Positions 1-5,202 of a stretch of 64,000 bases of DNA are shown piece after piece. The notes under the pieces are model-generated. The model saw only the letters and a list, made by a program, of their open reading frames with translations, ran no database searches and was not told the origin of the DNA. Position 1 is the first letter of the stretch; the number at the start of each line of letters is the position of its first letter. The position numbers and the translations under genes were made by a program. This stretch comes from Dyella sp. (lineage in GTDB: Bacteria; Pseudomonadota; Gammaproteobacteria; Xanthomonadales; Rhodanobacteraceae): positions 14,736-78,735 of the forward strand of contig NZ_DATJTC010000002.1 in assembly GCF_035503745.1 (NCBI RefSeq). The letters run 5' to 3'.

Positions 1-1680
<1,680 letters not shown>

Positions 1681-1869
1681 CGAAGTGCGGAAAATTAAGG
1701 TTGGGACAAGGACTTATGATAACCCAGCAGGCCTTGTAGGGGGTCGCCTACCTAAACATGGCATGTTTTCTGCTTGCTAATCACCGCACTTTCACGGGCA
1801 GATGCCGCGCAATTCGCGCGCTGAGATAGGGCGACAGGGGCCCCTTCGCGTACCGGGACAGGAAGCAAA

Positions 1870-1902
1870 GACGGCGCCCGAAAGGGCGCCGTCGTTATTT
1901 TT
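1870..1902 (+). terminator. Rho-independent terminator-like hairpin (possibly bidirectional)
   Basis: GACGGCGCCC-GAAA-GGGCGCCGTC followed by GTTATTTTT. Confidence 0.7.
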
Positions 1903-2156
1903 GATCTCTTGCAAGAGAGATCTGGCGCCCGGCGGTCTCAGGAACAGGGGGAATCCAGGATGACCGTGTTGCCGGGCGCCAGAAACTGAAAAACCGTCAC
2001 GCATCACGGGCTGCATGGCAACCATGGCATCCCCTTGGCGTAGGGCGATCATCGCCCCGTACGTGTGAACATTGGGTGACTAAAACGCAAAAATATGCCG
2101 GTATTTGGCAGCTGATGACGTAATAGGTCACAGCGTGATCGAGAGCAAAAATGTTG

Positions 2157-2172
2157 TGTGATGTGCATCACA
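2157..2172. promoter_or_regulatory. CRP/Clp-type binding site
   Basis: Perfect TGTGA-N6-TCACA (TGTGA TGTGCA TCACA). Confidence 0.65.
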
Positions 2173-2175
2173 AGT

Positions 2176-2191
2176 TGGCACGCCTAATGCA
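2176..2191 (+). promoter_or_regulatory. sigma54 (-24/-12) promoter-like element
   Basis: TGGCACG-CCTA-ATGCA, one mismatch to TGGCACG-N4-TTGCW, about 35 bp upstream of an RBS and ATG. Confidence 0.6.
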
Positions 2192-2225: not shown

Positions 2226-2411
2226 ATGGATAACAGTAACGAGTTCGCACCGGTTTACCTGCGGCACGATCTGATGATCGAAATCGGTCGCCTTGAAATG
2301 GCGATGGATCATCTGGTCGAGCGCGAGCCTGCCCAACAGCAGCAGCTGCGCCCGCGCCTGGAATCGCGCATGAATCATCTGCTCACCGAGCTGGATCATC
2401 TGCCCGGCTGA
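2226..2411 (+). CDS. small hypothetical protein (61 aa, helical)
   Basis: GGAGGGG RBS before ATG 2226; MDNSNEFAPVYLRHDLMIEIGRLEMAMDHL...; high-GC3 codon usage; followed by a hairpin. Confidence 0.75.
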   Translation: MDNSNEFAPVYLRHDLMIEIGRLEMAMDHLVEREPAQQQQLRPRLESRMNHLLTELDHLPG

Positions 2412-2493: not shown

Positions 2494-5136
2494 TCAGCGC
2501 TGCAGCACGTTGCCGATGATCTCGCCCAGGTTGCGCGATAAGTCCTGCCGCCGGGCCAGATCCTCAAGCGCCGCATGCGCCGCTTCCCGCCGAACCGGCT
2601 CCAGCCGTTGCCACCCGTTGAAGGCCGTGGCCATGCGCGCGGCGATCTGCGGGTTAAGTGCATCCAGCGCGGCCAGCCGTTCGGTCAGCCAGCGATAACC
2701 GGCGCCATCGTCGCGGTGGAAGCCACTGGGATTGTTGCTGGCGAACGCGCCGATCACGGCGCGCGCGCGGTTGGGATTTTTCAGCGTGAAGGCCGGATCG
2801 CTTTCCAATGCCTTGACGATGGCGAGCGCCGGCTCGCCGGGCACCTGCGCCTGCACGGCGAACCATTTATCCAGCGCGAGCGGGTTGTCGGCATAACGCT
2901 GGCGGAAATCCGAAAGCGCCGCCGCGGCCTGCGCCGCGCGATCGCGGACCAGTACGCCCAGTGCGGCGAGGCGGTCGGTCATGCCGCTGGCCGTTGCGTA
3001 TTGCTGCGCCGCCAGCGCATGCGCGCCGTCGGCATCCACCAGGGCCAGCAGTTCGAGCACGCGGCGTTTGAGCCGGCGCCGGGCCTGGCTGTCGGCATCG
3101 AGCGACTGGCCGGCCTGCGATGCCAGTGCGCGATAGCGCGCAAGCAATGCCGGCGCGCCGATGTGTTTGGCCAGATGATGCTGCAACGCCTGGCGTTGCG
3201 CGTGAATGCTGACCGGATCCACTTCGGCCTGGCGATCGGCGAATTCGATTTCGCCGGGCGGTGTAAGCAGATCGGCCAGCAGGGCATCGTCGATCGTGTC
3301 CTGCTCGAACAACACGCCCAAGGCATCGCACCAGGCTTTGCATGCCTGCGTTTCGCCCTCGCGCAAGCTTTCGAACGCAAGCACAGCCAGCTGCTGGCCG
3401 GCCTCCCAGCGATTGAAGCCATCCGCGTCGTGCGTCAACAGCAGCGCCAGTTCGGCCGGCGAGTGGTTGTATTGCAGCACCACGGGCGCTGAGAAGTCGC
3501 GCAGCAACGAAGGTACCGGGTGGCTTGCGACATCGCGGAAAACAAGCTGCTGCGATGCTTTGTCGATCACTACGACCGTTTCCGTGCCGCCGTCGCTTCC
3601 CTCCAGGTGCAGCGGCAGCAACTGTCCGTTGCGATCGAACAGCGATAGCTTCACGGGAATCGGCACGGGTGCTTTCTCCGGCTGTCCGGCCGTGGCGCGC
3701 GTGTGTTGCGAGAGGGTCAGCGTGTATTGGCGTTTGGCCGCGTCGTAGTCGCCGTGCGCGTGCAGATGCGGCGTACCGGCTTGCGCATACCAGGCCAGGT
3801 ACGGCATCAAGTCGGTGCCGTTGGCATCGCCTAGCGCGCCGAGGAAATCCTCGATCGTCGCCGCGCTGCCGTCGTGGCGTTCGAAATAGGTGTCCATGCC
3901 GCGCCGGAAACCTTCAGGTCCAAGCCGGCCCGCGAGCATGCGCACCAGTTCGGAGCCTTTCTCGTAGACGGTGGCGGTGTAGAAGTTGTTGATCTCCCGG
4001 TACTCGGCCGGACGCACCGGGTGCGCCAGGGGGCCTGCGTCTTCGGGAAACTGCGTGCGGCGCAGCAGCGAGACGTCTTCGATGCGCTTGAGCGGCGCGG
4101 AGTTCATGTCCGCGGAAAACTGCTGCTCGCGGAACACGGTAAGGCCCTCCTTCAACGACAGTTGAAACCAGTCGCGGCAGGTCACGCGGTTGCCGGTCCA
4201 GTTATGGAAATACTCGTGGGCGACCACCGCTTCGACGGCGCGGTATTCCTCGTCGGTGCTGCTGTCAGGATCGGCCAGCAGGTACTTCGCGTTGAAGATG
4301 TTCAGGCCCTTGTTTTCCATGGCGCCCATGTTGAAGTCGTGCGTGGCCACGACGTGGAATACATCCAGGTCGTAGTTGCGACCATAGTTGCGCTCGTCCC
4401 AGCGCATCGAGCGTTCCAGCGCATCCAGCGCGTAGTGGCAGCGGTCGATGACGTTCGCTTCGGACCACATCACCAGTTTTACCGCGCGACCGTCCGCCGC
4501 AAGGTAATCGCGCTGAATGCTTTCCAGCCGCCCGGCCACCAGCGCGAACAGGTAGCTCGGTTTGGGATGCGGATCGACGAAGCGCGCCCAATGACGCCCC
4601 TCCGGCAACTCGCCGCTGCCATCGGGATTGCCGCCGGCCAACAGCACGGGAAAGCGTGCGCGATCGGCACGCAGCGTCACAGTGAAACGGGCGAGCACAT
4701 CGGGACGGTCCGGGAAAAAAGTGATGTGACGAAAGCCTTCCGCTTCACATTGGGTCAGAAGGAAGCCGCTCTCGCGCGAACCGGACAGGTACAGGCCCTC
4801 CAGCGTGGTATTGGCGGCCGGCTTAACCCGTACGCGGGTTTCCAGCACGCTGCCATCGTGTGCGCCATCCACTTCCAGCCCGTTGTCGTGGATGCGGTAG
4901 CTGCCCGTATCGAGCGGGCGGCCGTCCAGCGAGATCGCCAACAGCTCCAGGCCCTCGCCATCCAGTCGCAGCGGTTGGGGCTGGGTGGGATCGTGGCGCA
5001 CGTTGAGCCGGGCGCTGATCTCGGTGCTGTCGATGCCCAGGTCGACGTCCAGTTCGATGGCGTCCACGCTCCATGCGGGTCGGCGGTAGTCGTGCAGGCG
5101 GATGGGGGCGGGGGCAGTTTCGTTGGCGAGGGTCAT
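2494..5136 (-). CDS. pepN: aminopeptidase N (M1 family)
   Basis: FLLTQCEAEGFR, FNMGAMENKGLNIFN, HEYFHNWTGNRVTCRDWFQLSLKEG, C-terminal NPNRARAVIG; start taken at MTLANE. Confidence 0.96.
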   Translation of the reverse strand: MTLANETAPAPIRLHDYRRPAWSVDAIELDVDLGIDSTEISARLNVRHDPTQPQPLRLDGEGLELLAISLDGRPLDTGSYRIHDNGLEVDGAHDGSVLETRVRVKPAANTTLEGLYLSGSRESGFLLTQCEAEGFRHITFFPDRPDVLARFTVTLRADRARFPVLLAGGNPDGSGELPEGRHWARFVDPHPKPSYLFALVAGRLESIQRDYLAADGRAVKLVMWSEANVIDRCHYALDALERSMRWDERNYGRNYDLDVFHVVATHDFNMGAMENKGLNIFNAKYLLADPDSSTDEEYRAVEAVVAHEYFHNWTGNRVTCRDWFQLSLKEGLTVFREQQFSADMNSAPLKRIEDVSLLRRTQFPEDAGPLAHPVRPAEYREINNFYTATVYEKGSELVRMLAGRLGPEGFRRGMDTYFERHDGSAATIEDFLGALGDANGTDLMPYLAWYAQAGTPHLHAHGDYDAAKRQYTLTLSQHTRATAGQPEKAPVPIPVKLSLFDRNGQLLPLHLEGSDGGTETVVVIDKASQQLVFRDVASHPVPSLLRDFSAPVVLQYNHSPAELALLLTHDADGFNRWEAGQQLAVLAFESLREGETQACKAWCDALGVLFEQDTIDDALLADLLTPPGEIEFADRQAEVDPVSIHAQRQALQHHLAKHIGAPALLARYRALASQAGQSLDADSQARRRLKRRVLELLALVDADGAHALAAQQYATASGMTDRLAALGVLVRDRAAQAAAALSDFRQRYADNPLALDKWFAVQAQVPGEPALAIVKALESDPAFTLKNPNRARAVIGAFASNNPSGFHRDDGAGYRWLTERLAALDALNPQIAARMATAFNGWQRLEPVRREAAHAALEDLARRQDLSRNLGEIIGNVLQR

Positions 5137-5202
5137 GCGGCACGTGGACAAGGCAAAGTTGGATCAGGCTAACATGCGGGTTTTTCCCGTCGGGACAAGC
5201 GC

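Follow-up and report, generated by a model that had tools for sequence, protein, structure and literature searches.

What is encoded in the 545-nt gap upstream of mnmG (gidA) in Dyella sp.? The gap lies in a 64,000-nt stretch of contig NZ_DATJTC010000002.1 (hereafter the window), between the mnmG start codon, whose ATG is at position 1680 on the minus strand, and a plus-strand open reading frame (ORF) of 61 codons at 2226-2411. A preliminary description, made from the letters of the window, had read this interval as one Rsm/Csr-type small RNA (sRNA) or two in tandem. Our analysis points instead to two separate sRNA genes that converge on one bidirectional terminator, neither of them an RsmA sponge. 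The first is a plus-strand sRNA of the type of asX1, an RNA known from Xanthomonas, and the second is a minus-strand hairpin RNA with a C-rich loop. We hold this explanation, taken as a whole and including the interplay proposed below for the two RNAs, to be probable and well short of certain. It is built on the sequence features themselves, their conservation, the synteny with mnmG, a covarying stem that discloses its strand and the co-occurrence of the two genes, all of which were observed directly. The earlier notion of two RNAs is therefore retained, while their tandem arrangement is not, since the genes are convergent and have their terminator in common.

Every feature that the preliminary description had placed in the gap is present at its position (Table 1), and its view of the stretch as non-coding RNA territory was borne out. 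The interval 1785-1995 folds with a z-score of -4.6, and none of 200 shuffled sequences was as stable. The absence of a convincing ORF also held, as relatives carry insertions and deletions that are not multiples of three. Two small ORFs (53 aa on the plus strand and 86 aa on the minus strand) were ruled out by such frame-breaking indels together with the stem covariation described below. Similarly, an element linked to the replication origin oriC was ruled out, as, in complete genomes, 25-535 kb separate the locus from contig starts, and its stem evolves in an RNA-like manner. When 40 relatives were searched, the region was detected in 23 of the 24 genomes of the same genus, and in 6 genomes from other families of the order the match was limited to the long hairpin. 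Alignment of the 24 Dyella genomes showed that intergenic conservation begins exactly at the sigma-54-type promoter, that positions 1786-1900 are well kept and that positions 1915-1988, the entire long hairpin included, are 100% identical.

The plus-strand RNA can be tied to a known family. The asX1 model (RF02235) aligns over its full length (1-115) to positions 1787-1901 of the plus strand, which was the sole Rfam match of note; under stricter filters, the model gave no match in the Dyella genome itself. asX1 was described as a 116-nt RNA of Xanthomonas campestris pv. vesicatoria 85-10 (Xcv) by differential RNA sequencing and Northern blot, and was classed as cis-antisense by Schmidtke et al., who also reported additional Northern signals of up to 900 nt (PMC3300014). 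It has since been detected in Xylella RNA-seq data (PMC12189769). No function, regulator or sigma-54 promoter for asX1, and no paper on sigma-54-dependent sRNAs in Xanthomonas, was found in the literature searched. Applied to 80 genomes of the order, the model returned 8 matches above threshold (89-107 bits), all within one family, the Xanthomonadaceae. All 8 are divergent from mnmG, lie 100-170 nt upstream of it and are preceded by a promoter of the form TTGGCACG-N4-YTGC. The RNA of the window is arranged likewise, being divergent from mnmG with a sigma-54-type promoter ahead of it.

Across 55 loci, the interval from predicted start to terminator follows one plan with a total length of 112-128 nt: a 5' GCAC, a closing helix, a GC-rich hairpin, a hairpin with an (R)CAGGG(G) loop, a single-stranded GGA(A/C)GC and the terminator. 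The closing helix is recovered by RNAalifold when 22 sequences from two families are aligned jointly, and the (R)CAGGG(G) loop is borne by more than 15 different stems across families, several of them with G.U pairs on the plus strand. The family that we label f12 has a short version of about 55 nt, in which a single-stranded 5'-GUGUCAGGGGGAAUC is followed directly by the terminator (L069-L075); this GUGUCAGGGGGAAUC repeats 11 nt of the invariant 16-mer of the long hairpin, which starts 10 nt past the T-tract of the short sRNA. In the Xanthomonadaceae loci L031-L038, the terminator hairpin of asX1 carries a G-rich loop as well (GUCGGGGGAC). By position and architecture, the predicted plus-strand RNA is the Rhodanobacteraceae ortholog of Xanthomonadaceae asX1, and the conserved business end of this putative RNA is the hairpin loop with (R)CAGGG(G). 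The Dyella RNA shares with asX1 its place (divergent from mnmG, about 100 nt upstream), the sigma-54-type promoter, the length of 116 nt, and the parts from 5' GCAC through closing helix, CAGGGG-loop hairpin and GGAAGC to the terminator. It differs in a primary sequence that has diverged below the Rfam cut-off, in a loop (GACAGGG) that is shorter than the AAUUGGAACAGGGG of asX1, and in a terminator that is common with a convergent RNA.

The element TGGCATG-N4-CTGCT, which had been proposed as a sigma-54-like promoter, has the canonical GG/GC spacing, and its GG and GC are invariant in the 24 Dyella genomes. Taken by itself, the motif match is not significant (1 match against 0.30 expected; 26 of 100 shuffles contained at least one). 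In five families, nearly all loci have an equivalent promoter upstream of the asX1-like RNA, and the genome encodes one rpoN together with six genes for bacterial enhancer-binding proteins. These comparisons suggest that transcription of the plus-strand sRNA depends on sigma-54. A search for sigma-70-like promoters in 1500-2700 gave none.

The second gene is defined by the long hairpin, whose outer stem is a 13-bp perfect inverted repeat that encloses, as the preliminary description had it, the motifs CAGGAAC, GGGGAAT and CAGGATG; on the plus strand the tip reads GGAACAGGGGGNATCC. In 50 distinct aligned hairpins from across the order, 98% of cells are paired, 12 of 12 outer-stem pairs show compensatory changes and none of 500 shuffles reached any of these measures, while pairing drops to 30-52% in controls with slid partners. 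Among the non-Watson-Crick cells of the outer stem, 39 read as G.U on the minus strand and 3 on the plus strand, and an independent helix finder that scores both kinds of wobble equally gave 45 versus 9. The folding energy of the minus strand is kept within -28 to -41 kcal/mol across families and that of the plus strand falls to -20 to -25 kcal/mol in Xanthomonadaceae, where the terminator that follows the hairpin has its U-tract on the minus strand. Because of the G.U asymmetry, the stability of the minus strand and the minus-strand U-tract of this terminator, the predicted hairpin RNA is minus-sense, that is, of the same sense as mnmG. Its apical loop would therefore be GGAUUCCCCCUGUUCC, closed by GGA/UCC, and the "GGA loops" described earlier would be the antisense of the real loop.

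The asymmetry between strands also bears on whether the hairpin is an RNA at all. An invariant 16-mer that is flanked by inverted repeats and lies amid dense regulatory palindromes and two sigma-54 promoters could belong to an element that acts at the level of DNA, such as a protein-binding site or a cruciform. A palindrome selected as DNA, however, would be expected to lose its pairs evenly to G.T and A.C, as opposed to the 39:3 (or 45:9) ratio observed, and the compensatory changes, which affect all 12 pairs, indicate that selection acts on a single-stranded transcript of one sense. Because of this wobble asymmetry, we find a DNA-level element barely credible. For the same reason, it is very unlikely that the hairpin works in the plus sense, whether as a second RNA in tandem or as a 3' extension that the asX1-like RNA would have in a read-through isoform, with the motif CAGGGG(GAAUC) shared by the two for a common partner. 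Several observations would suit such an arrangement: family f4 lacks a terminator between the asX1-like RNA and the hairpin and has the more stable fold on the plus strand; in f12, 10 nt separate the T-tract of the short sRNA from the hairpin; a CAGGGG-containing motif occurs twice on the plus strand; and long Northern signals have been reported for asX1 (PMC3300014). However, the non-Watson-Crick cells of the outer stem are nearly all A.C or C.A when read on the plus strand, f12 included, the plus-strand stability collapses in Xanthomonadaceae, no family has a plus-strand terminator after the hairpin, and in one genome asX1 is inverted away from it.

The minus-sense hairpin is widespread in the order. 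Its 16-mer occurs as a single copy in 172 of 401 genomes, as compared to 1 match for a reversed control, and these genomes fall into families f1 (63/64), f2 (61/65), f4 (26/41), f5 (4/4) and f12 (17/27), with none in f7, f8, f9 and f10. Outside the order, it was found in 2 of 397 genomes, both of which lack the stem and the adjacent mnmG, and these two matches are accordingly attributed to chance. Searches with the mnmG protein (tblastn) placed mnmG next to the element in related loci, and mnmG lies on the same side of the hairpin, in the same orientation and 150-680 nt away, in 47 of the 48 loci checked. No family of Rfam 15 covers the hairpin, including its Xanthomonas, f12 and f4 versions, the 16-mer is absent in either sense from the literature searched, and the supplements of an sRNA screen in X. 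campestris pv. campestris (Xcc) contain neither gidA/mnmG nor the hairpin sequence. The minus-strand hairpin RNA is therefore undescribed in Rfam 15 and in the literature searched, and it is conserved order-wide.

This constant proximity to mnmG gives weight to the strongest rival to our explanation, namely that the hairpin is a cis element in a long mnmG leader, on which the sigma-54 sRNA acts as a cis-antisense regulator; together with its following terminator, the hairpin would be an attenuator or a protein-binding operator for mnmG. It has remained upstream of mnmG and in its sense in 47 of 48 loci despite insertions that place it 150-680 nt away and one inversion of asX1, families f12 and f4 have no minus-strand stop between hairpin and mnmG, and the published classification of asX1 as cis-antisense, with its Northern signals of up to 900 nt, would fit as well (PMC3300014). 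On the other hand, all families have a conserved candidate -10 box that would serve mnmG itself, 30-40 nt ahead of the start codon (TATCAT in Dyella and TACCAT, TAACAT or TAAAAT in other families), and one or two strong terminators separate mnmG from the hairpin in Xanthomonadaceae, in f5 and in most Rhodanobacteraceae. Moreover, there is no complement of the loop near the mnmG ribosome-binding site (RBS), and a simple hairpin with a 10-nt loop is atypical of a metabolite aptamer. On balance, we consider an mnmG leader element unlikely.

If the hairpin belongs to an independent minus-strand RNA, its ends can be proposed from neighboring signals, the 5' end from a candidate -10 box and the 3' end from the common terminator. 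The stem-loop with a T-tract that the preliminary description had noted at 1870-1893 is present and followed by GTTATTTTT, is called as a terminator on both strands, and within the genus keeps its stem while its loop varies. In Dyella, this stem-loop, read as 1893-1870 and followed by UCUUUGCUU, is the sole terminator downstream of the hairpin on the minus strand, and the 3' ends of the two RNAs would therefore overlap by about 40 nt. The smaller hairpin noted earlier at 1903-1922 is also present, and its place is taken in other genera of the family by a GC-rich terminator hairpin.

No standard sigma-70 or sigma-54 match was found for a promoter of the minus-strand RNA; one minus-strand sigma-54-like site has a spacing that is one base short. 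The candidate promoter consists of two repeats ahead of a -10-like box, and the geometry AGTCAC-N5-GTTCAC-N10/11-NATNAT is constant in 9 genera of the family. A conventional -35/-10 reading of this site was ruled out by its 10-nt spacer, and the arrangement resembles a response-regulator direct repeat that would replace the -35 box. Family f12 has a TATACT box 25-45 nt before the stem, with nnTGA-N6-TCACA 19-20 nt before that box. In loci L031-L038, the hairpin is preceded, at a distance of about 110 nt, by the end of a minus-strand gene for a low-complexity protein rich in Pro, Gln and Arg, and the Xanthomonadaceae hairpin RNA could therefore be derived from a 3' untranslated region (UTR).

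With strands and boundaries proposed for both RNAs, the initial interpretation of the locus can be weighed. Rsm/Csr sponges usually expose at least 4-5 GGA or A(N)GGA motifs in loops or single-stranded linkers, and the GacA/UvrY box TGTAAG-N6-CTTACA sits well upstream of a sigma-70 promoter. It had been proposed that the interval encodes one or two plus-strand sRNAs of this type, which would present GGA to RsmA and be activated in a GacA-type manner at the palindrome 1735-1752. The two further GGA triplets noted near 1856-1863 do exist, within GGGACAGGAAGC at 1855-1866, and one GGA (AGGAAGC / GGGGAAGC), just before the terminator, is the only one kept across families. The plus-strand sRNA has 2-3 GGA (2 in Dyella), and the loop of Xanthomonas asX1 has two more. 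The genome also has one CsrA/RsmA gene and a UvrY/GacA-like response regulator, which scores 217 bits and falls below the 280-bit cut-off, and in one Dyella genome the palindrome reads GTAAG-N6-CTTACA. This best regulator of the UvrY/SirA/GacA family (G000:C28:55675-56307, L091), next to which the following NarL-type protein reaches 127 bits, is possibly a diverged GacA.

Set against these points, an Rfam scan of 1600-2600 on both strands gave no Rsm/Csr family at E <= 10, GGA triplets are few, and the asX1-like RNA presents CAGGG(G) as its invariant loop motif in place of A(N)GGA. In the long hairpin, all three GGA belong to the strand opposite to the predicted RNA, whose minus-sense loop offers UCC and CCCCC instead. 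The palindrome did not hold up as a GacA box, as it ends 6 nt before the -24 box of a sigma-54-type promoter, in a region without a recognizable sigma-70-like promoter. Of the palindrome, the right half alone, CTTAC(A/G), is kept within the genus, and no equivalent was found at that place in other genera. The known RsmA-binding sRNA of Xanthomonas, RsmU, derives from the 3' UTR of comEA and is unrelated to the locus (PMC7694677). The likeness to RsmY/RsmZ/RsmX, CsrB/CsrC and RsmU consists in a small, non-coding and intergenic character with a few GGA triplets on the plus strand. In contrast to RsmY/RsmZ/RsmX and CsrB/CsrC, the locus is without an array of GGA loops and has a sigma-54-type promoter in place of a GacA-dependent sigma-70 promoter. 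An RsmA sponge is thus a highly improbable reading of this interval; an Rsm pathway may exist in the genome, and nothing ties it to the locus.

The two genes that we propose in its stead are kept together. Families with the hairpin have both the sigma-54 promoter and the CAGGGG-bearing sRNA, while in families without the hairpin neither a sigma-54 promoter nor a CAGGGG hairpin was found upstream of mnmG. In one Xanthomonadaceae locus (L081, G381:C14:687802-688717), asX1 is inverted together with its sigma-54 promoter and the hairpin keeps its orientation relative to mnmG. This inversion and the co-occurrence by family indicate that they are separate genes that are maintained together.

A potential basis for this association is found in their loops. 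The ACAGGGG at 1834-1840 in the loop of the asX1-like RNA is complementary to CCCCUGU of the minus-strand hairpin loop, and in every family the asX1 loop is identical to 6-14 nt of the 16-mer in its plus sense, and is hence complementary to the hairpin loop. The common stretch is ACAGGGG in Dyella, GGAACAGGGG in f2 and f5 and CAGGGGGAAUC(C) in f12. We propose that the G-rich loop of a sigma-54-induced asX1-like RNA would pair with the C-rich loop of the hairpin RNA, that in Dyella both RNAs would also have overlapping 3' ends, and that one RNA would thereby titrate or destabilize the other. Sigma-54-dependent sRNAs with an RNA antagonist are known from Vibrio, where the Qrr sRNAs are countered by the QrrX sponge, and GlmY/GlmZ is also cited in this context. 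The likeness to these systems is that a sigma-54 promoter drives a short sRNA and that a second RNA may act by mimicry or sponging; they differ from the present locus in that there is no sequence relation, that the Dyella partners lie tail to tail at one locus and that their interaction is a prediction. The pairing idea is based on the positions of the motifs and not on duplex energy, given that the predicted duplexes between asX1 and the hairpin loop beat shuffles only in f12, f5 and part of f2 and are no better than shuffles in Dyella and f4.

A number of observations weigh against the explanation of the locus as two interacting sRNA genes. The asX1 model scores 23.8 bits in the window (E 0.39 in a search with all families) relative to a gathering threshold of 70 bits, and no upstream activator site was identified for the first sigma-54-type promoter; TGAC-N7-GTCA palindromes lie about 350 nt downstream of it. 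In f4, plus-strand G.U pairs occur in the inner stem of the hairpin and the plus fold exceeds the minus fold in stability by 1-7 kcal/mol, and neither f4 nor f12 has a minus-strand terminator after the hairpin. In Dyella, the loop complementarity spans 7 nt, with 26-55 of 200 shuffled asX1 sequences doing as well in most Dyella genomes and 4 of 200 in one, and both loops are invariant. Complementarity to a pilin RBS, discussed below, is confined to Rhodanobacteraceae and is not kept in other families. Finally, we infer transcription, strands, ends, expression and regulation of both RNAs from sequence comparison and from the published work on Xanthomonas asX1.

The C-rich loop itself offers a lead to possible function. 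It contains UCCCCCU, the motif of loop 3 of sX13, an sRNA that represses mRNAs with G-rich motifs near the start codon (PMC3771888). The minus-strand RNA might act in a comparable way, as an anti-RBS-type sRNA with a C-rich loop that pairs with G-rich, RBS-like mRNA sequences. The sX13 model (RF02232) gave no match at the hairpin. The true sX13 homolog of this genome lies at G000:C18:110892-111004 (L100; RF02232, 60.9 bits), and its loops, CCUCCCUGG, UCCCCUGGG and CUCCCCCUAA, are complementary to the CAGGGG loop of the asX1-like RNA too. Because Dyella has its own sX13 on another contig, the hairpin RNA would be an analog and not a copy of sX13. The two are alike in an apical loop with the C-run UCCCCCU, the best complements of which in the Dyella genome lie at ribosome-binding sites, and a C-run in an apical loop that could pair with G-rich, RBS-proximal mRNA motifs also recalls RepG/HPnc5490 and the C-rich loops of RNAIII type. 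However, sX13 has three stem-loops, whereas the hairpin RNA has a single long one, the tip of which is invariant over 16 nt. The hairpin also keeps a constant place next to mnmG and has as its partner a convergent sRNA with the complement of the hairpin loop.

Outside the locus, the longest loop complements in the Dyella genome sit at ribosome-binding sites. One of 12 nt, which stops 4 nt short of the ATG, belongs to a type IV pilin gene, one of 10 nt precedes pilM, and others of 11 nt precede three other genes; the 12-nt pilin match is peculiar to this genome. Sequences like (C)AGGGGGAAUC are found at or near the RBS of two adjacent type IV pilin genes (G000:C10:52067-53283, L101) and of pilM (G000:C47:114951-116009). 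The major pilin has a conserved 5' UTR of about 125 nt behind a sigma-54 promoter, with two G5 motifs, and this sigma-54-driven 5' UTR carries UAGGGGGAU and UCAGGGGGCAUC in four genera of the family. The pilin RBS was ruled out as a conserved target, as related 5' UTR motifs occur solely in Rhodanobacteraceae. The palindrome TGAC-N7-GTCA, a candidate activator site to the right of the hairpin, also occurs at pilA in three of four Rhodanobacteraceae genera, about 170 nt ahead of the sigma-54 promoter of that gene (L101, G000:C10). Genome-wide, it adjoins sigma-54-like motifs at 3 loci versus 2.4 expected by chance, and it was rejected as a regulon marker because this count does not exceed chance. 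The possible link to pili is to be taken as a lead only.

Combining these elements, one may picture a conserved RNA-RNA switch, in which the hairpin sRNA would repress genes with a (C)AGGGGGAAUC RBS, and the G-rich loop of asX1 (in f12, its 5' end) would be an RBS mimic that sponges the repressor. As formulated here, the type IV pilin genes and pilM would be included as targets in Rhodanobacteraceae, and the activator of asX1 may be that of pilA, both loci having TGAC-N7-GTCA. In this full form, we judge the switch to be distinctly unlikely.

Table 1. Features of the mnmG-proximal part of the window, in order of position (+, plus strand; -, minus strand; a point where the feature is given without strand).
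Feature	Position	Strand	Basis
mnmG (gidA), 5' part; the gene leaves the window	1-1680	-	ORF list; ATG at 1680
Candidate -10 element (minus-strand TATCAT) of the proximal mnmG promoter	1716-1721	-	predicted; genus-conserved block GCTTATGGTAAT
Imperfect palindrome TGTAGG-N6-CCTACC; not a conserved GacA box	1735-1752	.	present in sequence
Sigma-54-type promoter TGGCATGTTTTCTGCT; GG 1760-1761, GC 1772-1773, predicted start ~1785-1786	1759-1774	+	conservation
Predicted asX1-like sRNA, ~116 nt: 5' GCAC, closing helix, GC-rich hairpin, GACAGGG-loop hairpin, single-stranded ACAGGAAGCA, terminator	1786-1901	+	
Hairpin of asX1-like RNA: stem GGGC/GCCC, loop GACAGGG	1829-1843	+	
Proposed extent of minus-strand RNA, ~180 nt	1862-2041	-	predicted
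10-bp GC-rich stem-loop, predicted bidirectional intrinsic terminator; GTTATTTTT on +, TCTTTGCTT on -	1870-1893	.	called on both strands
Small genus-specific hairpin, GATCTCT/AGAGATC, that stacks on the base of the long hairpin	1903-1922	-	sequence and alignment
Core hairpin of the predicted minus-strand RNA, 63 nt; outer stem 1921-1933/1971-1983	1921-1983	-	conservation and covariation
Inner pairs of long hairpin, GGTC/GACC and GGA/TCC	1934-1937/1962-1965 and 1941-1943/1954-1956	-	
Apical loop of long hairpin, UUCCCCCUGU		-	strand set by covariation
Invariant 16-mer; plus sense GGAACAGGGGGAATCC, RNA sense GGAUUCCCCCUGUUCC	1941-1956	-	single-copy motif
Candidate minus-strand promoter: AGTCACC (2081-2075) / GTTCACA (2070-2064), 10 nt, -10-like GATGAT (2053-2048)	2048-2081	-	predicted
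Palindrome TGACGTAATAGGTCA (TGAC-N7-GTCA), candidate activator site	2116-2130	.	equivalents right of hairpin in nearly all loci
Perfect palindrome TGTGA-N6-TCACA, CRP/Clp-like consensus; abuts second sigma-54 promoter	2157-2172	.	family-conserved
Second sigma-54-type promoter TGGCACGCCTAATGCA	2176-2191	+	TGGCAC/TGC invariant in genus
61-aa ORF (MDNSNEF...), no Pfam family	2226-2411	+	ORF list, Pfam search

The right-hand part of the gap holds a second sigma-54-type promoter, which in many loci lies at +215 to +275 relative to the hairpin motif and is predicted to drive the 61-aa ORF. Homologs of this ORF, with a sigma-54 promoter of their own, were found by tblastn at the same place in three loci of other genera (L041, L026 and L027). 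Between the ORF and the convergent gene for aminopeptidase N (2494-5151; 885 aa; Peptidase_M1, DUF3458) lies a stem-loop, GACGGCGCCC/GGGCGCCGTC at 2439-2467, whose stem is identical in sequence to that of the terminator at 1870-1893.

With these results, the locus drops out of the search for the missing RsmA antagonists of Xanthomonadales and is placed with asX1, which is among the most widely conserved sRNAs of Xanthomonadaceae, in Xanthomonas, Xylella and Stenotrophomonas. What is new for asX1 is the assignment of a sigma-54-type promoter and the extension of the family to Rhodanobacteraceae and three further families. In our reading, asX1 is accompanied by a second, unannotated structured RNA whose invariant loop is complementary to its own, which predicts rpoN dependence, a minus-sense hairpin RNA and loop-loop pairing. 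If the RNA-RNA switch outlined above were true, it would provide a first function for asX1 and a new order-wide sRNA.

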